From assembly GCA_964513095.1 (NCBI GenBank), contig CAZELH010000001.1, forward strand, positions 1 through 33,220: a DNA stretch of 33,220 bases. Reading direction: 5' to 3'. The stretch is from an uncultured Candidatus Saccharibacteria bacterium (GTDB taxonomy: Bacteria > Patescibacteriota > Minisyncoccia > UBA6257 > 2-01-FULL-56-20). The notes under the pieces were generated by a model. That model did not search any database and was not told the DNA's origin. It worked only from the letters and a program-made list of their open reading frames with translations. This document shows positions 9,006-31,614 of the stretch, piece by piece; within the stretch, counting starts at the first letter, position 1, and the number at the start of each line of letters is the position of its first letter. A program made the translations under genes and the position numbers.

Positions 9006-9821
9006 TTAAGGGGTTGTGGTCGTAGTCGTCGTAGCGGTTGTCGTTGTGTTTACTGGAGGAAGAGTATTGACCCCTGGGATGCCGGCAAGTGTGGTAGCGG
9101 CGGTTCGAACAGCTTCGCGGGCAGCTTTTACCTTTTCTTGCAAAGCTTCTAAGTCAGCTTTGAGTGCATCGCGAACTTTTGAAATATCTCCTTGGAGTTT
9201 TGTTTCGGTTGAGACGGTGACCGGATAATCCTTACCAGCTTGGGCGGTAATCGCGGTACGTGCAGTAGTAATCGCGGTTTGCGCGGCAGTAATAGCAGTA
9301 CGAACTGATGCAACATCCTTACCAGCGGTTGCGGCACGATCTGTGCGAGACTGCACATTCGTTAATACTTTCTCAATTTGATCAACAGCTTTCGTAAAGA
9401 ATTCGGTTCGATTTTTGTTAATCTCCTCAAAACGCTTATCAACGCGCTCTACGATATTTTTCTTTGCTTCATCTTTGATAGCTTTCAATTTTTTCTTTAA
9501 TTCTTCACGGCGTTTTTCGATAGCGTCTTTCAATTTTGCTCGACGTTCTTCGACATTCTTTTCGAACTCAGCGCGACGATCTTCTCGCTCTTGCTTGTTC
9601 GCTTCCATCATTTCTTTACGATCTTCCCGATTTTCTTTTCGCACCTCCTGACGATCCTTCATGTTCTGTTGAATGGTCTCTTTCTTGAGTTCAACAGTGG
9701 CTTTGATGGTATCGCGACGTTCCTCAATACGAGGACGTATTGGGGTAGTTTCGGCATGTGAGTATGGGGCAACGAGGCTTGCCAAAGCAGTAGCTGCCAC
9801 TATGTATGTATATGTACGCAT
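9006..9821 (-). CDS. hypothetical secreted coiled-coil protein with poly-Thr C-terminus
   Basis: Signal-peptide-like MRTYTYIVAATALASLVAPYSHAE. Long E/K/R heptad-like region. TAIT repeats. C-terminal TTTTATTTTTTTP. Confidence 0.7.
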   Translation of the reverse strand: MRTYTYIVAATALASLVAPYSHAETTPIRPRIEERRDTIKATVELKKETIQQNMKDRQEVRKENREDRKEMMEANKQEREDRRAEFEKNVEERRAKLKDAIEKRREELKKKLKAIKDEAKKNIVERVDKRFEEINKNRTEFFTKAVDQIEKVLTNVQSRTDRAATAGKDVASVRTAITAAQTAITTARTAITAQAGKDYPVTVSTETKLQGDISKVRDALKADLEALQEKVKAAREAVRTAATTLAGIPGVNTLPPVNTTTTATTTTTTTP

Positions 9822-9920
9822 GGCTTTCAGTATAGCATAAAAGAGTCGTGCAACGTAGAGCCTAAAACCTAGAACTTAAAGCGTGCAACGGAGAGCAGGA
9901 AGCCTGATGATATTTTTATC

Positions 9921-9994
9921 TGTCATTCCGAGCTTGGCGAGGAATCCCTGCATGTAAGATAACCGTGAGATTCCTCGCCAAGCTCGGAATGACA
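9921..9994. repeat. 74-nt palindromic element (26-bp perfect inverted repeat, 22-nt loop)
   Basis: tgtcattccgagcttggcgaggaatc (9921-9946) is the exact reverse complement of 9969-9994. The same architecture occurs at 19214-19287. Confidence 0.9.
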
Positions 9995-10042
9995 AGATTC
10001 ATGACTTTTGTTTCTGCATTATTCATACTTAACGCCCCTGCT

Positions 10043-21488: not shown

Positions 21489-22838
21489 ATGAAAAAGAAA
21501 TATGCAATAGCCGGAATGCACTGCAAATCGTGCGAAATACTTCTTGAAAAAAGTATCTCACAAATCTCCGGTGTCAAAAAAGTTGAAGTGAGCCAAAAAT
21601 TAGGAATTGCGGAAGTTGAATTTTCGCATGGGATCGTAGCGGAGGAGCTCATCGCCCAAGCAGTCAATGACGCGGGGTACACGCTTGGTCATGCAAAAAA
21701 GCTTCCATGGGTATCGCGAAATCCAGAAGAATGGATGGAGCTATTGCTTGGCACCACCACACTCTTGTTTTTCTGGATGGTGGGAAATACGGTGGGTATC
21801 TTCGATACGTTTGGAACAAATATTTCCGCCACACCAACCTACCCCATTATATTTATCATCGGCCTTACCGCCGGCGTCTCAACCTGCATGGCAGTAGTGG
21901 GAGGGCTGGTCGCCGGTTTTTCTGCCTCATACGCGCAAAAACATCAGTACGCTACTCGCTGGGAGCGATTTAAACCACACCTCTTCTTTAACATCGGGAG
22001 ATTACTTTCGTATGCGATACTAGGCGGTGTTATTGGGTCTTTAGGATCAGTTGTTACCATATCAACTGGATTTACGGGTGTTCTAGTTGCCGTATCTGGC
22101 CTCGTTATGGTGGTAATGGGAATGAAACTCACGGACATTTCTCCAAAACTTTCCAATACCAACATAACCCTTCCAAAAAAAATAAGTCAGATGCTCGGTA
22201 TTCACAAAAATGATGGAGAGTATTCACATGCACAAGCATTTATTGGAGGAATACTCACTTTTTTCTTGCCCTGTGGGTTCACGCAGGCGGTGCAAGTCTA
22301 TGCGATAACGACAGGAAGTTTTGCAACAGGCGCAATCGTCATGTTTCTGTTTGCGCTCGGCACGATGCCGGGGTTGGTAGGTATTGGCGCGCTCACCACG
22401 CTCTTGCAAGGCAAAGGAGCGAAAATCATCTTTCGATTTATCGGTCTGATCGTCTTGATACTAGGAATAGTGAATCTTTCCAACGGAATAAGCGCCAGTG
22501 GAATACAAATTCCTTCCCCTTTTGATATGTTTGGAAATAAAGCAACAACAAACGAAGCAATCATTGAAAATGGCGAACAGGTCGTGAAAATGATTCAATC
22601 AGCTGGCGGATATAGCCCCAATAAATTCATTGTGAAAAAAGGAATTCCGGTGCGGTGGGTTATTGATTCACAAAACGCCTACACCTGCGCTGCCTCACTT
22701 CGAATGCCACAGTACAACATCGCGCAATTCTTGAAAGAAGGAGAAAACGTCATCACGTTCACGCCAACGCAAGCAGGAGTCGTGCGATTTATGTGCAGTA
22801 TGGGTATGTATTCGGGAACATTCACCGTAGTAGAATAA
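21489..22838 (+). CDS. HMA domain / TauE-DsbD-like permease / C-terminal cupredoxin-like fusion protein
   Basis: N-terminal GMHCKSCE heavy-metal-associated motif, about 6 TM helices with FFLPCGFTQ, and a C-terminal beta-rich domain ending [16 protein letters not shown]. Confidence 0.8.
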
Positions 22839-22854
22839 AAACATCATAAAAAAT

Positions 22855-25023
22855 ATGAAAAAAATTTCATTTGGCATTGGTGGCATGCACTGTGCCTCAT
22901 GTGTCGTTCTCAATGAAAAAGCGATACGATCGGTGGCAGGAGTAACAGATGTGTCGGTAAATTTCGGACTTCGAAAAGCACAAGTTTCATTCGATGAAAC
23001 AAAAACGACGGAAAAAGATATTCACGACGCAGTTATTGCTGGTGGATACACGGTTGAAAGTAGTTCCAATAGCACGATGCGTCATGAGCACGCGCAAAAA
23101 GAGATTGTGCGGGTAAAAAAAACCGCCATCTGGTCTGTTGGCTTAGCAATCGTAACAGCAATACTTGCAATGGCAAACATACGGTTTGGTATTCCTGTAT
23201 TGAACCGCGATCTTTCGGCGCTAACGCAAATGGTAGTAAGCGCCATCGTCATTTTCGGATTTGGACGAGAGTTTCATGTTGGAATGTTCAAAAAAGCACG
23301 CAGATTTCAAGCCGATATGGACACATTAGTGTCTCTTGGCACTATCGCCGCGTTCGCCTTTAGTGTCTATGGACTCATCATGCAAAGCCCCGATTCTTAT
23401 TTTGAAACAGGAGCAGTTATTGCGGGATTGATTTTGTTGGGGCGGTATTTTGAAGCAAAAAGTCGCGGATCAGCTGGAGAAGCGGTTGAGAAATTGATGC
23501 AACTGGGTGCAAAATCAGCACACGTAGTACGAAATGGACAAGAAACAGAAATTCCAATCGCCGATGTTACTCTTGGCGATATTCTTCGCATTCGTCCGGG
23601 AGAAAAAATTCCGGTAGATGGCAGTGTGCTTTCGGGAAATTCGAGCGTCGATGAGTCGATGCTCACCGGCGAAAGTATGCCAGTCACCAAAAAAATTGGC
23701 GACAAGGTGTTTGGCGCAACATTGAACAGTAGTGGAAGTTTCGAAATGAGAGCTGAAAAAGTAGGAAGCGACACCGTCCTCGCGCAGATTGTAAAAATGG
23801 TGGAAGAGGCGCAAACCCAAAAAGCGCCAATTGAACGGTTGGCCGACACACTATCATCGATATTCGTGCCGATTGTATTGGGAATTTCAGTAGTAACGGT
23901 TGCGGGGTGGTTCTGGGCAACAAAAGACATCACGCAAGCCATTACGACGGCAGTAGCCGTGTTAGTGGTCGCTTGCCCGTGTGCGTTGGGGTTGGCAACA
24001 CCAACGGCGGTGATGGTGGGCACCGGCGAAGGTGCGCGCCGTGGCGTGTTGATTAAAAACGGATCATCGCTCGAGAAAGGGAAGAAAATAGACACCGTAA
24101 TATTCGATAAAACCGGCACGCTTACCCAAGGAAAACCGAAAGTGACCGATGTCATTTCGGTGGATGGTGTCGCGGAAAATGAATTACTTGTCATCGGAGC
24201 GAGTATTGAAAGCTACTCCGAGCATCCCCTCGCCCACGCAATTGTCGAATATGCAAAAGAAAAAAACAGCAAGATAGTCGATGTAAAAAATTTCACGGCA
24301 ATAACAGGCAAAGGTGTGCGTGGTGAAGTAAATGGTGCGCAGATTGTAATGAGCAGTGTTCGATTTGCGCACGAAGAGCATGTCGATATAAGCAAAGTAC
24401 AATCAAATATTACGCAATTAGAACTCGAAGCAAAAACAGTTATTGTTGTAATAAAAAACGGTGAAGTTATCGGCGCACTTGCTATTGCCGACGCCATAAA
24501 AGAAGACGCGCCACTCGCCGTAGCTACCCTAAAAAAGATGGGTATGAAAGTCGCGATGATTACAGGAGACAACGAAGCCACTGCTCGTGCTATTGGGAAA
24601 ATGGTTGGCATCGACGACGTCATCGCTCACGTACTGCCGCAAGACAAAGCAAAAGCAGTAAAAAGCTTGCAAATGAAGGGTGCGAAAATTGCCTTTGTGG
24701 GTGACGGCATCAACGATGCCCCCGCGCTCGTACAATCTGACTTAGGAATTGCGATGGGCACCGGTACCGATATTGCCATCGAATCAGGTGATATCGTCTT
24801 GGTTTCAGGGAGTCCGGTAAAAGTGGGCGTGGCAATTCAGTTGGCGCAAGTAACCTTTCGAACGATTAAACAAAACCTCTTTTGGGCATTCTTCTACAAC
24901 GTCGCCGCCATTCCCCTTGCCGCATTCGGATTACTCAACCCCATGATCGCCGCCACCGCAATGGCCGCATCGAGCGTGAGCGTGGTCGCCAACAGTCTCC
25001 GTATCAAACGCAAAAAAATGTAA
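22855..25023 (+). CDS. copA: copper-translocating P1B-type ATPase
   Basis: GMHCASCV (HMA), [18 protein letters not shown] (CPC), [15 protein letters not shown]. Confidence 0.95.
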
Positions 25024-25055
25024 GATAGATAAATTTCTCTTTAAGATACTCTCAA

Positions 25056-25532
25056 TTAATTCAACACCCAGATCATGTAGTTGAGGTATCCGGCAAAACT
25101 CACCCACACAATGTATGGCGCCAAAAGCCACGCAGAGAGTTTTGATACTTTAGAAAACGCAATAATGGTAAGGAAAATGGCGAGCCATAAAATGACGATC
25201 TCCACAAACGCACCCCCAAAATTGCGGAAATTAAAAAAGATAATAGACCACAGCGTATTCAAAACTAATTGAGTACTGAAAATACCGAGGGCAATTTTTA
25301 CCTCTCTACGTTCCAAACCCCTCTTCCATACCAAAAACCCCGCAATTCCCATCAGGGTAAAGAGCGTCGTCCAGACTGGCCCAAACACCCAATTGGGTGG
25401 GTTAAGTGCGGGTTTAACGATGCCTCCATACCATCCATCAATAGCTGAAACGGTAAAAAACGACCCAATAACGCCAGCCAGCTGTGAAACACCAATCGCG
25501 ATAACAAGTTTTAAAAAGTTGTTGACTCTCAT
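25056..25532 (-). CDS. tspO: TspO/MBR tryptophan-rich sensory protein
   Basis: WYGGIVKPALNPPNWVFGPVWTTLFTLMGIAGFLVW plus 5 TM helices is the classic TspO pattern. Confidence 0.9.
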   Translation of the reverse strand: MRVNNFLKLVIAIGVSQLAGVIGSFFTVSAIDGWYGGIVKPALNPPNWVFGPVWTTLFTLMGIAGFLVWKRGLERREVKIALGIFSTQLVLNTLWSIIFFNFRNFGGAFVEIVILWLAIFLTIIAFSKVSKLSAWLLAPYIVWVSFAGYLNYMIWVLN

Positions 25533-25587: not shown

Positions 25588-28503
25588 TCAAAATAATTTA
25601 CCCGCAGCCGTCGCCTCATTCACTCTCGCAAGCTCACAAATTTCTTCAATTGAAGCATTATTGTCTTTCAAGCTGTAAAAGTGGTTCTCACCAAGTAGAA
25701 TATACGACCATTCTCGCTCTATTCTGTCCTTTGCATCAAGAGAGTTGATGCGTTTTATCCAATGAAGAGTGGAAAGCTGTTTTTGTTTAACATTTTGGTC
25801 ATTTAAATCTTTATCGGATTTTGTTTCAATGAGGTATATTTTCTTTGCCGTTTTTACGATAAAGTCAGGAAAATAGAGGGACAGCAATCCGTCAGTACGA
25901 ATATATGAAATAGTTGCAAACGAATGAGAATACTCATTAACTTTAATCAAACTCTCAACACCAGAATCCGTATCTGCATACAGCATAAATTTTTTTTCAA
26001 ATTCACCTCTATTTGATGGGTATGCTAGGCGTTCATAAATTGTTTTAACAATCGCAAGAGAAAAATTTTCTCTCATTCTAAGCTCCGTAACTTCTGAATA
26101 ATATCGCTTTTCAATTTTTGCTTCTGTTGGTTTTATCGCTTGTTGCATATCGATAACTGCTTTGCCAATTTCTTTCACAATATGGTCCGTAATTAAACCA
26201 TTTTTTAGTAAAAGAATTTTCCAATTATTATTTACAAAAGGATCAAAGCTTTGTCTAAAGAGACGATTACGAATATAGGTATCAATAGTACTAACAATAG
26301 CGACGTTGTTAATCTGCATAGCTGGAAATACTTTATTTTTTCTCTGGCTTATTCTGGCAATCCTATTAACCACCACACCAACAATTTTTTGAAGATACTC
26401 ATTATAGCTTTGTGATTTGAAAAGAGCCGCATCAACTACATATTCTCCGAATCGAGTTTTTACTGTCATTTCTTCCGAAATAAACCTCTCGCCATCTTTT
26501 GTAAAAAACTTTTTCAAATCCTCAAGTAGGTATAGATTAAATGCCTCAAGTTTATTTACATCAATTTCAATCTCCGTCAGCTCATCATCAGCATCTCTTA
26601 TAATAATGGGCCAAAATAAGTCGTAATCTTTGTAATTTTTTTTAAGTCCAACTTTAATAATATCTCCAAGAACATCACGCTCACCTGTCGGATCTTTTTC
26701 AATCTCGCCAAGCAAACCTTCTTTCAGAAGTTCGTCGTAAAATTGGATAAACGCAGGGTGCTCAATAATAGTAAGTAAATCAAGATAATTATTAGGCTCA
26801 CGCTTTTCCGAGAGTAGTTTTCTTCTGTTATCAGCTTTTACTTCTTCAAATTCTGGTTCGCGCCACATAAGTCGAAGCCCTCGCCCAATCGTCTGTTCGA
26901 GTAAAATTGGCGCCGAAGAAGAACGAAGCGGAACAATCACGCAAATATTATTTACATCAAATCCTTCTCGTAACATAAGCACCGACACAATAACTTTTGG
27001 ATGCGCATGTTTGTCTACATTAAAAAGTCGTTGTTTGATTTCAAACCATTCCTCCTCTGGCACTTCTCCCTTTCGGTTTGAATCAATACGCATAACATCT
27101 TCCGAATTCAACCCTTCGCTTTTCAAGAATTCTTCAATGAATGGCGTGACAGAGGTATCTTCGCTCATCACCAGCATTTTCGGATGTTTATTCGATATCC
27201 CGCTTTTATCCTCAGTAAATTCAGTGAAATGCTTTTCAAGAATCCGCAACTTATTAAGTCCGGCTCGGAGCATCATTTTTTGACCGTCGGAAAGTCCAAC
27301 TACTTCTCCATTCTCCCGAATAGCATTGTATTCAAGAGGTAGATCAACGAGTTCTTTCCTCTTATCGATTGCAATAGTTTTTACCAATCCAGACCGAATT
27401 GCCGTTTTTAAATCAAAATCAACAATAATATGAGGAAAATAATGTTTAATTCTATTTTGCCCACTACCAGTTACATCATATGGCGTAGCCGAGAAATCAA
27501 TTTGTATAAACTTCGACGCTTTGTTTTTAGCGATAACATTCAAACTTTTTTGCCATTCGACTTCTTTTACTTCTCCGTATGCTTTATTCTCGTGAATATG
27601 GTGTGCTTCGTCATTCATTACCATCAAATCAGGCAAACTAGCAAGATATTCAATTTCGCGACCGCTTAAATATTGAGAGTCCAAAGAATCAAGCGCGTTT
27701 CCTCCAGATGTCCCCGGTCGCACAGGAAAGACGTCTTTCAACACAGCACTAGGATCATCAAGCGCGGAGGCTTCCTCTTCGTTTTCGTCCTCACTCATAA
27801 ATAAATGCCAATTCGCTATGGCAATGAGACCATCTCCAGTGACCTTAGTCCCGATTTCTTGTTTTCTGGCTACTGCGTTTTGTACAAAGCCAAATATGTC
27901 TTCACGATAACTAGGTGGAACAAAAATATCGCGAAATTGGTACACATCAGAAGTTTCGAAATTTCTTTCGCCTTCCATATTTTCCTTGCCTAAATACGCA
28001 TCAAGCAATCTTTCATAAACAATAAGTCCAGGCGCGACAAGGAGAAAGTTTTTTGAATATTTGCCACTTCGAGTTTCTTCATATTTTGCATTGAGATATT
28101 GCCAGATAAGAAGTGCGTGCATAACCCATGTTTTACCCGTTCCTGTCGCCATCTTTATCGCATATTTTGGAATATCATATTTCACTTTCCGAAATTCAGT
28201 CATGTCTATTTCAGACAAAAGTTCAAATTCAATATTGTCATAAATATCTTTAACGGCTTTTACCCCCATTACTTCATGCAAATAAATCGTGTTTAAAATC
28301 GCCTGACGCTGTCCTTCATGAAAATTGGCATATCTTGTTGCTCTATGCGGTTCGGTGAACCAAAAAGTGAGCAAATCACGAGTTACTGGAGTAACTTTTG
28401 CCATCATTTCTCCATTTGCCCACGACTCATTAACCCTGCTCGTAAGCTTGCTGGCAAGGCGAAGTGGTATATCTCTTGTTCCTAGTTTGATCGGGGTTGG
28501 CAT
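25588..28503 (-). CDS. res: Type III restriction enzyme Res subunit (SF2 helicase plus C-terminal PD-(D/E)xK)
   Basis: ATGTGKT (motif I), MNDEAHHI (DEAH), FSATP, QTIGRGLR (motif VI), and the C-terminal nuclease-like PDF...LIETK. The start lies 2 nt after the mod stop. Confidence 0.9.
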   Translation of the reverse strand: MPTPIKLGTRDIPLRLASKLTSRVNESWANGEMMAKVTPVTRDLLTFWFTEPHRATRYANFHEGQRQAILNTIYLHEVMGVKAVKDIYDNIEFELLSEIDMTEFRKVKYDIPKYAIKMATGTGKTWVMHALLIWQYLNAKYEETRSGKYSKNFLLVAPGLIVYERLLDAYLGKENMEGERNFETSDVYQFRDIFVPPSYREDIFGFVQNAVARKQEIGTKVTGDGLIAIANWHLFMSEDENEEEASALDDPSAVLKDVFPVRPGTSGGNALDSLDSQYLSGREIEYLASLPDLMVMNDEAHHIHENKAYGEVKEVEWQKSLNVIAKNKASKFIQIDFSATPYDVTGSGQNRIKHYFPHIIVDFDLKTAIRSGLVKTIAIDKRKELVDLPLEYNAIRENGEVVGLSDGQKMMLRAGLNKLRILEKHFTEFTEDKSGISNKHPKMLVMSEDTSVTPFIEEFLKSEGLNSEDVMRIDSNRKGEVPEEEWFEIKQRLFNVDKHAHPKVIVSVLMLREGFDVNNICVIVPLRSSSAPILLEQTIGRGLRLMWREPEFEEVKADNRRKLLSEKREPNNYLDLLTIIEHPAFIQFYDELLKEGLLGEIEKDPTGERDVLGDIIKVGLKKNYKDYDLFWPIIIRDADDELTEIEIDVNKLEAFNLYLLEDLKKFFTKDGERFISEEMTVKTRFGEYVVDAALFKSQSYNEYLQKIVGVVVNRIARISQRKNKVFPAMQINNVAIVSTIDTYIRNRLFRQSFDPFVNNNWKILLLKNGLITDHIVKEIGKAVIDMQQAIKPTEAKIEKRYYSEVTELRMRENFSLAIVKTIYERLAYPSNRGEFEKKFMLYADTDSGVESLIKVNEYSHSFATISYIRTDGLLSLYFPDFIVKTAKKIYLIETKSDKDLNDQNVKQKQLSTLHWIKRINSLDAKDRIEREWSYILLGENHFYSLKDNNASIEEICELARVNEATAAGKLF

Positions 28504-28505
28504 AA

Positions 28506-30467
28506 TTAAATTTCTTTTACCACAACACTCTCAAATCCAAAGACATCTACGGCCCGGACACAAATTTTTCTTTTTCCTTCAACTTTTGGTACTATAAATT
28601 CTGCCTTATACAAAACCCTCATTGGGTCACCATCTTTTTCTGTATTACCTCTATAATCCTGCCACACACCTTTAAAAGTTTCACCGTCATAATCAGGATC
28701 AATACTCCAATATTCTATTAGGGCAAGTGAATCCTCGGCAATAAGCTTCGATAATTTTTCTTTGTCTTTTTCATCGAGCGGCAAATTATCCGCCGAAATT
28801 AACGCATACCAGTCTAAGATAACCCTTATGCGGTCACCTTCTTTCCCAGCGCTTAATCCTTCAGCAGACTTTAATACAAGGTATTGGGGTGACGAGAACC
28901 TGATTTTACCGCTATCTATTAGTTTCTTATAGCTTGCTTTTGTTTTTAACTTATCTATCAAGTCAGGGGGTATTACCGCTAAATCCAGGTCCTCATCATC
29001 AAGTGACCCTTTTGCGTCAAGTATGTCATAAGTAAAATTCCACCCCAAAACAACAACTTTTTTCCAACCACCCATAAAAGTGTTCCTGAGTTCTTGTGCG
29101 CGTTTTAAAGTAGACAATCCAGTCATCTTATTTGGCGAATCAACCAAAACAAGAGTTTTGGTTTCTTTTATGTATCCTAAATTGCGCTGATGTTGTTCCA
29201 CATCGGCAAAAGGGATCGCGCCATAAAGCTGTAGCACCACCTGCGACAAATCACCCATTCTTCTAAACAATTTCGAGCTTGTGACAGCCTCTTTTTGGTA
29301 ATCTCCAATAGACTGATAAAGAAAAGGCTTTGCTTCTTGGTCAATAAGCCTCTTACGAGTTACTAAACTTGCCGGCTTGCCAAGGTCAGACATGATCCAT
29401 TTTCGTCCAAGTTTTTCTGCAACAGCCCCTGTTGTACCAGAACCCATAAAAAAATCAGCGACAATGTCACCCTCGTTTGAAGATGCTTTTATGATCCGCT
29501 CCAAAAGTGCCTCTGGTTTTTGGGTGTCATAGTCAACTTTTTCTGGAGATTTTGGGTCAACAACTTTTATATACCAGACATCTCCAATAACAGAGCCTTT
29601 AAACTCAATGATTACATCATCCCCTTCTGGTTTTCTTCCCTTATCTTTTATAAAACTATCAATATATGTTTGAAAACGCTTGTCGTGATAGGGTGCATTT
29701 CTTGCATAAATTTTATTGGAATCAACGTAATCGTACCACCGATTAAAATTAACTCCGGCGTTTATATCTTTTTCGTAGTCTCTATTAAATGTGCGTACTT
29801 CAGATTTGCCATATATGTAGATACTATTATGTCTACGTGGAAAATACCGATCAGTTTCAGACCAAGCTCCTTGATACTCCCAAGTAATTTCATTGACAAA
29901 ATTGTTCTTTCCAAAAACTTCATCTAGTAATATCTTTACATAATGCCCAACGTGCCAATCAATATGCACATAAATTGACCCCTTATCGGAAAGAAGCTCG
30001 TGCATAAGGGCAAGGCGAGGATAGAGCATTTTCAAATATGAAACAGTTCCATCTTTCCATGTGTCAGCATAAGCAAATTGTTCAATTACAGTCGGCTTTT
30101 GTTCTAAGTCTGCACCCGGGAGTGTTATTTTTGTCCGATAATCTGCTTTTGAATCAAATGGGGGGTCAATATAGATTAAATCTATTTTTCCACGCATTGA
30201 TTGGAGGCCACTTGAAGGGTCGCCGGAGAGGAGTGCTTGCATCGCCAAAAGATTATCGCCATAAATGATTCGATTCATCAATCCTTTCTCGTTTACTTCC
30301 GGAATTTGGCCCTTGAAAAGTCCGGCGGTATCTTTTGCTGGAAGAACTAGTTCGTTTGTTTGAAGTCCAAGCTTATTCGCTCCAGAAAGTCGCTCAAGAA
30401 TTTCCTCAACTTCTTTTCTACCCTCCGCTACTATTTTTGGCAATTCCTCAATAAGTGATTTTTTCAT
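28506..30467 (-). CDS. mod: Type III DNA methyltransferase Mod subunit (beta-class N6A/N4C)
   Basis: Motif IV LIYIDPPF precedes motif I DFFMGSGTTGAVA (beta permutation). 653 aa, adjacent to res. Confidence 0.9.
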   Translation of the reverse strand: MKKSLIEELPKIVAEGRKEVEEILERLSGANKLGLQTNELVLPAKDTAGLFKGQIPEVNEKGLMNRIIYGDNLLAMQALLSGDPSSGLQSMRGKIDLIYIDPPFDSKADYRTKITLPGADLEQKPTVIEQFAYADTWKDGTVSYLKMLYPRLALMHELLSDKGSIYVHIDWHVGHYVKILLDEVFGKNNFVNEITWEYQGAWSETDRYFPRRHNSIYIYGKSEVRTFNRDYEKDINAGVNFNRWYDYVDSNKIYARNAPYHDKRFQTYIDSFIKDKGRKPEGDDVIIEFKGSVIGDVWYIKVVDPKSPEKVDYDTQKPEALLERIIKASSNEGDIVADFFMGSGTTGAVAEKLGRKWIMSDLGKPASLVTRKRLIDQEAKPFLYQSIGDYQKEAVTSSKLFRRMGDLSQVVLQLYGAIPFADVEQHQRNLGYIKETKTLVLVDSPNKMTGLSTLKRAQELRNTFMGGWKKVVVLGWNFTYDILDAKGSLDDEDLDLAVIPPDLIDKLKTKASYKKLIDSGKIRFSSPQYLVLKSAEGLSAGKEGDRIRVILDWYALISADNLPLDEKDKEKLSKLIAEDSLALIEYWSIDPDYDGETFKGVWQDYRGNTEKDGDPMRVLYKAEFIVPKVEGKRKICVRAVDVFGFESVVVKEI

Positions 30468-30470
30468 AAA

Positions 30471-31397
30471 TTATTTTTTCTCCAGCTTGAAGCTAATTTT
30501 GTATGTATAAAAATCGATATTTTGTGCAACAGACAGGGCACGATGAATTCTTGTGTCATCTTCAAAAGCGATTATCACACCTTTAACTTTTTGATTGTCT
30601 TCAGCCAATTCTTCTTGGACATAACCCATATATCGCTGGATTTGACCGACAACAACATCGCTCACGCGACCTTTCTTGAGCTCAACAACCAAAAGCTCTT
30701 TTTTATCTTTACTAATAGCCAAAATATCTATCGGTCCGGTATCACTTGGGTATTGCTGTCCTACCTTCTCCCCTTCTTCCTCGTAGATATCGTAATGTTT
30801 ACCAAGTTCGGTGTGGTGCCAGTTTTGTACCAAAAAATCTTCCAAATGTTTCTCCAAAGCAAAAATGCTCGGGTCTTCAATCGTTTCGTCGGTAGAGATA
30901 ATAGATACAGGGCGACTTCCTGAAATAAAACTCTCTATTTCATTTCCATATTTTGAAATATTGCTAACGGTTCCAATGCTTCCTGTTGAATTGCGAAGCG
31001 ACTCACTCATTTGATCGCGGGAAATCGTGTTTGGGAACCAACGAACAGCTCTGCGGTGCGGAAGGTTATCGTTCTTGTGATATTCATATTCACCCGTGAC
31101 TTCGCCGATATAGTATTCGCCCTTCCCATTGGGACAAAGAACAATATCGCCAATTTGCACGCCTTTTACTATCGTCCAAAGCATTCCGCAAGCAAGCCCG
31201 GCAGAAATTTTTGTTTTTTCAGGATTTTGTTTGAGAAAAAGTGGAATGAATTCTTTGTTGAAGTCTCGCCAGTTATCAGATAGGTGGCTCGCAAGGTTTG
31301 TATCCTTTATAAATCCTCCAGCTATAAAATTGCCTTTGTATGCCTCCTCGGCAAAAGCACTTTTTCGACCAAGCATTATGCGATAATAATTTTTCAT
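30471..31397 (-). CDS. NucS/DUF91-like PD-(D/E)xK nuclease with an uncharacterised N-terminal domain (308 aa)
   Basis: The C-terminal GPIDILAISKDKKELLVVELKKGRVSDVVVGQIQRYMGYV matches the D...E-x-K...Q..RY pattern of the NucS C-domain. Start at ATG 31397 (MKNYYRIMLG); the track ORF to 31547 reads through the tRNA gene. The stop lies 3 nt before the mod start. Confidence 0.75.
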   Translation of the reverse strand: MKNYYRIMLGRKSAFAEEAYKGNFIAGGFIKDTNLASHLSDNWRDFNKEFIPLFLKQNPEKTKISAGLACGMLWTIVKGVQIGDIVLCPNGKGEYYIGEVTGEYEYHKNDNLPHRRAVRWFPNTISRDQMSESLRNSTGSIGTVSNISKYGNEIESFISGSRPVSIISTDETIEDPSIFALEKHLEDFLVQNWHHTELGKHYDIYEEEGEKVGQQYPSDTGPIDILAISKDKKELLVVELKKGRVSDVVVGQIQRYMGYVQEELAEDNQKVKGVIIAFEDDTRIHRALSVAQNIDFYTYKISFKLEKK

Positions 31398-31405
31398 ACT
31401 CACTG

Positions 31406-31476
31406 CTGCGGGACTTGGACTCGAACCAAGATAGCCGCCTTCAAAGGGCGGAGTCCTACCATTAGACGATCCCGCA
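31406..31476 (-). tRNA. tRNA-Gln (anticodon UUG)
   Basis: Hand-folded cloverleaf: TGCGGGA TC GTC TAATGGTAG GAC T CCGCC CTTTGAA GGCGG CTAT CTTGG TTCGAGT CCAAG TCCCGCA G. It has a 7-bp acceptor with U1-A72, a 3-bp D stem and GTTCGAGT in the T-loop, as in bacterial tRNA-Gln. CCA is not encoded. Confidence 0.9.
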
Positions 31477-31488
31477 AAATACACACCT

Positions 31489-31516
31489 ATTATGCCACGT
31501 ACACCAAAAAAATCAA
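31489..31516 (-). promoter_or_regulatory. extended -10 promoter for tRNA-Gln (and possibly the downstream operon)
   Basis: On the - strand: TTGATT (31511-31516), 16 nt, TGgCATAAT (-10 at 31489-31494), 12 nt before the tRNA 5' end. Confidence 0.45.
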
Positions 31517-31614
31517 TTTCCCCGCATTGATTTTGGCGGGTAGTCATGCCATGCTAAAACCAGTTGCACCCCCCCTCTTTTTAATAATTCCATATCACCC
31601 ATCTGGAGGTACCC

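Follow-up and report, generated by a model that had tools for sequence, protein, structure and literature searches.

Does a nuclease gene lying directly ahead of a Type III restriction-modification (R-M) pair belong to that R-M system, or is it a passenger in the operon? The question is raised by a minus-strand gene cluster in a stretch of 33,220 nucleotides (nt) from an uncultured Candidatus Saccharibacteria bacterium (contig CAZELH010000001.1, positions 1 to 33,220), referred to below as the window. The cluster consists of a gene for a protein of 308 amino acids (aa) (gene 1, 30471-31397), followed by the Type III genes mod (gene 2) and res (gene 3), whose products have 653 and 971 aa, respectively (Table 1). 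An initial annotation of this DNA had described three tightly packed genes separated by 3 and 2 nt. Coordinates, strand and spacers were all confirmed, with exact open reading frame (ORF) ends; the spacer between gene 1 and mod reads ttt, and that between mod and res reads tt. The peptide motifs quoted for gene 1 were likewise found in its translation. The cluster is thus a tight, co-directional three-gene unit, and the strong family matches of all three ORFs in Pfam and PADLOC indicate that they are real genes.

Our preferred answer, to which we assign a probability of about 0.6, is that gene 1 encodes an autonomous, probably modification-dependent nuclease that is a passenger in the R-M operon. 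This reading builds on observed features: the structure of the genes, the identity of their domains, the conservation of catalytic residues, the repertoire of domain fusions, and recurrent embedding in R-M operons. That the protein depends on modification, acts on DNA and works apart from Mod-Res is predicted. Judging from the loci compared, the trio is not a conserved three-component system, and its Type III context is incidental, since gene 1 is a catalogued defense candidate and a promiscuous R-M passenger.

Domain architecture of gene 1

The NucS-type PD-(D/E)xK nuclease domain that the initial annotation had read at the C-terminal end of gene 1 was borne out by a Pfam match to NucS_C (PF01939) at residues 200 to 280 (E value, 5.7e-9) and by a conserved catalytic set. 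In a phmmer comparison with the NucS protein of P. abyssi (2vld), the segments GPIDILA, VVELK and QIQRY aligned with GIVDVMG, VLELK and QMKRY, respectively. Residues D224, E239, K241, Q252 and Y256 fell on the NucS active-site motifs and were invariant in 49 homologues. The full-length AlphaFold2 (AF2) model (predicted local distance difference test [pLDDT] score, 77) retrieved the NucS/EndoMS structures 2vld and 5gke in Foldseek, with E values of 5e-6 to 1e-5, and also touched the nucleases Card1 and Can2. Identification of gene 1 as NucS/EndoMS itself was rejected, as the scores against the NCBIfam NucS equivalogs lay far below the cutoffs (41.6 bits versus 216 for NF003270 and 24.1 versus 252 for NF002876) and the fold of the N-terminal domain is different.

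The N-terminal domain of about 170 aa, which the initial annotation had been unable to place, can now be assigned to Pfam DUF8426 (PF28530). The assignment was made through the precomputed annotation of homologues sharing 75 to 94% identity with gene 1, the model being absent from the local Pfam copy; a literature search under PF28530 found no papers. When the domain was modeled alone with a diverse alignment, AF2 returned a pLDDT of 96 and a predicted template modeling (TM) score of 0.89. The nine best Foldseek matches of this model in the PDB were all YTH domains (probability, 0.95 to 1.0; TM score, 0.42 to 0.52), followed by the EVE proteins 2ar1 and 2eve and, further down, by the N-terminal domain of McrB, whereas no NucS was present among the top 50. 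DUF8426 is therefore predicted, with moderate strength, to adopt a PUA-like (YTH/EVE-like) base-reader fold. Against a viral structure library, the domain gave weak matches to ASCH proteins. Its only clear viral structural homologue was A0A8S5NVT7 in BFVD (Myoviridae sp. ctEBR14, 336 aa), with a TM score of 0.76 and a root mean square deviation (rmsd) of 3.2, and a DNA scan of the IMG/VR viral contigs found no relatives of gene 1.

The partners to which DUF8426 is fused provided the best support for the sensor-plus-nuclease layout, reminiscent of Type IV enzymes, that the initial annotation had proposed. A search with residues 1 to 175 against 1.84 billion representative proteins yielded 1144 matches at an E value of ≤1e-3, in proteins of varied length. 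NucS_C was carried by 23 of the 60 longer DUF8426 proteins scanned, and the other partners were YhcG_C, PDDEXK_4, McrB-type AAA_5, GmrSD_N, Mrr_cat, HNH and AAA_15/21; one protein (P0204) combined DUF8426 with McrB-type AAA_5 and MrcB_N. Taken together, these partners are the effectors with which Type IV restriction works, so that both the predicted PUA-like fold and the shared effectors support the proposed layout. Y104, R116 and W120 were invariant across divergent DUF8426 fusions. The domain also occurs by itself, in many proteins about 160 aa long.

Other DUF8426 proteins carried a DUF900 alpha/beta hydrolase, CBS, MORN repeats, or an AAA_15/21 ATPase (P0270, P0131, P0121 and P0208). Because such partners are not nucleases, the reader domain may also serve effectors of other kinds. 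In a giant protein of 5419 aa (P0248), 20 separate stretches matched residues 30 to 66 of the gene 1 N-terminal domain (E value, 6e-25), which may represent a repeated submotif or a compositional artifact.

Genomic contexts of gene 1 and of the Type III pair

A check against PADLOC, as the initial annotation had advised, showed that the family of gene 1 is already catalogued: residues 1 to 307 of 308 matched PDC-S02 (PDLC04799) with an E value of 6.3e-164. PDC-S02 is a phage-defense candidate only. The family comprises more than 8000 homologues (counted as clusters at 90% identity) in bacteria and archaea. The top 120 share 75 to 94% identity with gene 1, are about 308 aa long and have the architecture DUF8426 plus NucS_C; some homologues are named endonuclease NucS by NCBI.

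Genomic neighborhoods were studied in a sample of 80 species-representative genomes with homologues at 56 to 90% identity, which belonged to Patescibacteria, Bacteroidota, Proteobacteria, Planctomycetota, Chloroflexota and archaea. Such a patchy spread over unrelated phyla and archaea at these identities points to horizontal transfer. Archaeal metagenome-assembled genomes (MAGs) held homologues at 59 to 79% identity, in Nitrosopumilus, Nanoarchaeota, Methanosarcinales and Methanoregula (L005, L026, L027 and L076); these copies would reflect either interdomain transfer or bin contamination.

When Mod and Res of the window were used as tBLASTn queries, relatives of Mod were found near gene 1 in 3 of the 80 loci and relatives of Res in none. 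With wider R-M queries, an R-M component was present within 10 kb in 40 loci, and at least 40 had no detectable R-M gene in the flank. The expected background for R-M adjacency is about 1 to 2%. Strong enrichment next to R-M genes, whose lack the initial annotation had regarded as fatal to its proposal, was thus observed. The recurrent placement beside Type III mod and res for which it had suggested a test was not: 37 of the 40 R-M-linked loci were Type I (24 of them with both HsdR and HsdM) and 2 were Type III-like. In about one-third of the sampled loci, gene 1 was embedded inside the R-M operon. HsdR was the next gene downstream in 14 of 68 loci, and HsdS directly preceded gene 1 in 10 of 66; the gaps typically measured -4 to +2 nt, and the commonest placement was hsdM-hsdS-[gene 1]-hsdR. 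Immediate neighbors included HsdR, HsdS, HsdM, BrxL and Type ISP enzymes. Overall, gene 1 copies were found mainly in Type I operons, beside other methyltransferases forming N6-methyladenine (m6A), or alone. Thus, gene 1 heads a Type I operon in one locus (L082, 831-8028; 85% identical), has a Dam-like methyltransferase and DndB as neighbors in another (L086), and is solitary in a third (L083).

Several of these loci contained further insertions. The Type I operon of L082 held a second passenger, an AAA_15/AAA_21 ATPase between hsdM and a split hsdS. The other two Type III-like contexts, L001 (1191-6537; gene 1 90% identical) and L042 (5220-10854; 67%), each had additional inserts. In L001, an unannotated 236-aa gene lay between gene 1 and Mod, and Res was broken up into two overlapping ORFs, one for a helicase (707 aa) and one for a TnsA-like nuclease (146 aa). 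In L042, a 237-aa gene followed gene 1, and Mod and Res were separated by a HEPN gene. No homology was seen between the 236-aa and 237-aa proteins.

Genes 2 and 3, for their part, have the features of an intact two-component Type III R-M module, and their reading as a Type III pair was upheld by family matches, motif order and conserved adjacency. Mod, in whose translation motif IV (IDPPF) precedes motif I (FFMGSGTTG), matched Pfam N6_N4_Mtase (E value, 4.9e-48) and PADLOC MTase_III (PDLC03633; E value, 9e-78; residues 62 to 649). Res matched Pfam ResIII (E value, 2e-12), Helicase_C and Tn7_TnsA-like_N (residues 855 to 908), as well as PADLOC REase_III (E value, 2.6e-28). It also gave a partial match, below the cutoff, to the NCBIfam BPTD_3080-family restriction endonuclease (E value, 2.9e-62), and its score against the Type III Res equivalog PRK15483 was far below the cutoff, which points to a divergent Type III subtype. 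A metagenome scan with Res retrieved homologues in 79 loci at 24 to 89% identity, including full-length ones at up to 89%. In 68 of these loci, res was preceded by mod on the same strand, the two being ≤150 nt apart in 40 of the 68, and the near relatives of the window pair were mostly plain Mod-Res with a 2-nt spacer.

The composite defense system of a Type III pair plus a third gene, as proposed in the initial annotation, found no counterpart in this lineage: all 79 Res-homologue loci lacked a gene 1 relative, among them 41 in which the sequence extends ≥1 kb beyond mod on its upstream side. The Type III lineage itself carries variable inserts. Six of its 35 closer members had more than 400 nt inserted between Mod and Res, and five of these inserts could be annotated. 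This Type III lineage thus often carries variable passengers, gene 1 is a common passenger of R-M operons at large, and the trio is one pairing of the two rather than a conserved three-component system.

The five annotated inserts were two Schlafen-type genes with AlbA_2 and HATPase_c_4 domains (562 to 565 aa; L087, 2108-3796, and L096, 1555-3252), a BRO-N gene (277 aa; L090, 6160-6993), a trypsin-like peptidase gene (230 aa; L099, 3142-3834) and a Fic/DOC gene (378 aa; L101, 2106-3242). The Mod-Res slot seems to act as a cargo site.

Transcription signals and chromosomal surroundings

The features of the cluster and of its upstream region are collected in Table 1. The mechanical ORF of gene 1 reaches position 31547, but this 358-aa version was rejected as the true gene because its extension runs through the tRNA-Gln gene; the start at 31397 was taken as correct because the homologues begin at MKNYYRIM. 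Only 7 nt separate the 3' end of the tRNA gene from the ATG of gene 1, a detail that the initial annotation had missed. A sigma-70-like site upstream of tRNA-Gln was the sole candidate promoter ahead of the cluster, and it is weak evidence, given that promoter matches across the region were fewer than in shuffled sequences. No terminator-like sites were found between the operon genes. Cotranscription of gene 1, mod and res from the tRNA-Gln promoter is therefore plausible.

TABLE 1 Coordinates of the genes, protein domains and upstream signals at the three-gene cluster
Feature	Position in window	Strand	Basis
Type III mod, beta-class N6/N4 DNA methyltransferase, 653 aa	28506..30467	-	Pfam, PADLOC, motif order
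Type III res, superfamily 2 (SF2) helicase (GTGKT, DEAH) plus C-terminal PD-(D/E)xK nuclease, 971 aa	25588..28503	-	Pfam, PADLOC
Res C-terminal endonuclease core, residues 855-908, ...YFPDFIV...IETK...	25780..25941	-	TnsA-like N match; motif in translation
Gene 1 N-terminal domain, residues 1-160, Pfam DUF8426, predicted PUA-like (YTH/EVE-like) base-reader fold	30918..31397	-	Homologue annotation; AF2; Foldseek
Gene 1 flexible linker, residues 161-175	30873..30917	-	pLDDT <50 in full-length AF2 model
Gene 1 C-terminal domain, residues 176-308 plus stop, NucS/DUF91-type PD-(D/E)xK	30471..30872	-	Pfam, phmmer, Foldseek
tRNA-Gln (anticodon UUG)	31405..31476	-	ARAGORN; Rfam tRNA, 61.5 bits
Sigma-70-like promoter match, TTGATT-16-CATAAT plus extended TG	31489..31516	-	Consensus match only

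The guanine-plus-cytosine (GC) content of the operon was 0.35 to 0.40, versus 0.43 to 0.49 in the adjacent flanks. On base composition, the operon is probably a low-GC island of horizontal origin, located directly downstream of a chromosomal tRNA-Gln gene. A search of the island flanks in the window for direct repeats of the att kind, derived from the 3' end of tRNA-Gln, turned up only short chance repeats. In a Paceibacteria locus (L002; gene 1 81% identical; region 9339-10000), a tRNA-Gln gene also lies upstream of gene 1, at a distance of 531 nt. Parts of the tRNA body and of its 3' end are repeated in that region, where a small ORF that looks HTH (helix-turn-helix)/excisionase-like by eye ends 2 nt before gene 1. 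The window and this locus together point to tRNA-Gln as a possible hotspot for islands.

Elsewhere, the window was ordinary chromosome, with genes for enolase, a CtpA-like protease, a copper ATPase and TspO. A copper-handling cluster adjoins the operon (21489-25532) and encodes a 449-aa fusion of HMA, DsbD_2 and cupredoxin domains and a 722-aa P-type ATPase. The TspO/MBR gene, which has the same orientation as res, begins 55 nt past the res stop codon, and the interval contains no terminator-like site. The window flanks showed no synteny with the fetched loci beyond the operon, and exact-sequence look-ups of the gene 1 and Res proteins returned no record.

Readings of gene 1 and comparison with known systems

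According to the preferred reading, gene 1 would be an independently mobile single-gene nuclease lodged at the 5' end of a Type III module. The N-terminal domain would flip out and read a noncanonical or modified base in incoming DNA, and the C-terminal domain would cut the DNA nearby without nucleoside triphosphate (NTP) hydrolysis, as PUA-nuclease enzymes of Types IV and IIM do. The mark read would have to differ from the methylation introduced by the neighboring Mod or HsdM. The gene would share the transcription of the operon and probably also its horizontal transfer, and would not be a subunit of the Type III enzyme. At the combined locus, Mod-Res would restrict unmodified DNA and gene 1 some class of modified DNA. 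Modification-dependent enzymes of the PUA-HNH and PUA-PD-(D/E)xK kinds follow the same logic (Lutz et al. 2019, PMC6765204; Bell et al. 2020, PMC7641849). Bell et al. offer further precedents: PUA-like readers were linked to R-M, YTH-like domains were fused to McrB GTPases or PD(D/E)XK nucleases, and EVE proteins were tied to Type I R-M in loci predicted to restrict both unmodified and modified DNA.

Several observations weigh against this reading. The one PDC-S02 representative assayed in E. coli B, which may belong to another subfamily, gave no protection against T7, T5 or T4, and modification dependence is a prediction for every member of the family. The PUA-like call is of moderate strength because it rests on fold (TM score, 0.42 to 0.52; rmsd, 6 to 10 Å) without a sequence-level link to solved structures, a profile search of the N-terminal domain against PDB sequences having given no meaningful match. 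PUA-nuclease modification-dependent restriction endonucleases rarely adjoin DNA methyltransferases (Lutz et al. 2019; PMC6765204), whereas half of the gene 1 family lies in methyltransferase-bearing operons. Moreover, YTH domains read m6A, the predicted product of those neighboring methyltransferases, so that the two would be in conflict unless their specificities differ. Finally, the tight coupling, with -4-nt overlaps and +1-nt gaps, could instead mean a functional partnership.

Such a partnership could take several forms. In the manner of PrrC, gene 1 might be held latent on the R-M complex until a phage anti-restriction protein released it, leading to abortive infection. The placement between hsdS and hsdR with these overlaps and gaps is that of the prr locus, where prrC lies in a Type IC system (PMC12707154; PMC2610378), and half of the sampled copies have R-M genes nearby. 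However, the partners are heterogeneous, ranging over Type I and Type III systems, Dam-like, EcoRI or Eco57I methyltransferases, and BrxL, and one conserved protein (75 to 94% identity) is unlikely to dock on such varied complexes. Some copies are solitary, and at least 40 of the 80 loci show no detectable R-M gene in the flank. Gene 1 has no homology to PrrC or RloC, the ABC-ATPase and anticodon-nuclease domains being absent in the Pfam, NCBIfam and PADLOC scans, and the fusion partners of its N-terminal domain are Type IV effectors. We therefore regard this role as unlikely. In an integrated three-component system, the YTH-like domain would read the m6A of its own operon to tell host DNA from foreign DNA, with the NucS-type domain serving as an extra or alternative restriction head. 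YTH, the best structural match of the N-terminal domain, can bind m6A in DNA, every identified neighboring methyltransferase was of the adenine-N6 (or N6/N4) class (N6_Mtase, N6_N4_Mtase, D12, EcoRI, Eco57I), and in both L086 and L013 gene 1 has a methyltransferase close by, with no nuclease among the few annotated neighbors. This arrangement nevertheless appears very improbable: the Type III lineage lacks gene 1 throughout the 79 loci, solitary copies exist, gene 1 is conserved independently of the nearby methyltransferase and its target site, and the enzymes of Types I and III come with nucleases of their own. A looser version would make gene 1 a portable partner of m6A methyltransferases, which would read the mark of whichever operon hosts it (Type I, Type III, Dam-like or BREX) or sense the loss of R-M, and so license its nuclease against unmarked DNA or anti-restriction attack. 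Though improbable as well, this version would, if true, make gene 1 a plug-in second restriction head or guardian for many unrelated R-M systems.

The remaining alternatives concern the substrate and the physiological role. Most PUA, YTH and EVE domains read RNA, an RNA target is predicted for related McrBC branches that have EVE-like domains (PMC11090510), and Foldseek touched Card1 and Can2; gene 1 could accordingly be imagined as an abortive-infection nuclease whose PUA-like domain binds a modified RNA base, for instance in tRNA, and whose PD-(D/E)xK domain cleaves RNA. Against this, its nearest nuclease relatives, NucS/EndoMS, cut double-stranded DNA, and the GmrSD, Mrr, McrB and HNH partners of DUF8426 are DNA restriction effectors, so that we give an RNA target very little weight. 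Least probable is a housekeeping repair endonuclease of the NucS/EndoMS kind, adjacent to R-M genes by chance. The NCBI label of some members and the homology of the C-terminal domain to NucS would fit it, but the membership tests effectively refute it: the equivalog scores fall far short, the N-terminal domain is not NucS-like, the distribution is patchy over phyla and archaea, in line with horizontal transfer, and 50% of the copies are R-M linked.

The interest of the autonomous nuclease favored here lies in its family, which is very large, unusually well conserved (56 to 94% identity across bacterial phyla and archaea) and experimentally uncharacterized. Knowledge of the target of DUF8426 would provide Type IV restriction with a new modified-base sensor and would also show whether R-M operons carry bundled complementary defenses. 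The window contributes a clean Type III example and a domain model predicted with high confidence.

Among known systems, NucS/EndoMS enzymes combine an N-terminal domain presumed to bind bases with a nuclease C-terminal domain, as in the EndoMS-DNA structure 5gke. Gene 1 shares this overall logic, together with the C-terminal PD-(D/E)xK domain and its D...ExK...QxxxY motifs, but its N-terminal domain has a predicted YTH/EVE-like fold rather than being NucS_N, and its genomic context is one of defense, not repair. Similarly, the PUA reader-nucleases (the EVE-HNH enzymes VcaM4I and TspA15I, the SRA-HNH enzyme ScoA3IV, and the YTH-like-PD(D/E)XK fusions) have an N-terminal PUA-like pocket, a C-terminal nuclease and no NTPase. 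Gene 1 departs from them in its reader, DUF8426, which is predicted to be PUA-like by fold only, in a nuclease of the NucS type rather than HNH, and, compared with those surveyed by Lutz et al., in the methyltransferase-bearing R-M operons that house half of its copies. As an accessory gene, it resembles prrC in EcoprrI and the standalone EVE/ASCH genes of archaeal Type I loci, which are also non-R-M defense genes co-oriented inside an R-M operon. It has, however, no sequence or domain relation to PrrC/RloC and, unlike the standalone EVE proteins, possesses a nuclease of its own.

The Type III pair agrees with canonical enzymes such as the EcoP15I-like Mod2Res in having mod upstream of res, a beta-class Mod, and an SF2 Res with a C-terminal PD-(D/E)xK domain. 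In Type III systems, cleavage is ATP dependent and requires a pair of unmethylated sites in inverse orientation, and hemimethylation protects the host. It differs in that its Res is nearer to the BPTD_3080-family endonuclease than to the PRK15483 model and in that its lineage is often host to passenger genes. The closest likeness of gene 1 is with PDC-S02 itself, whose model it matches end to end; length and domains are those of thousands of homologues, and nothing sets it apart from the family. Both the PDC-S02 (DUF8426 plus NucS_C) family and the YTH-like-PD(D/E)XK fusions are already known, and the window is thus a useful example of them rather than a new kind of system.

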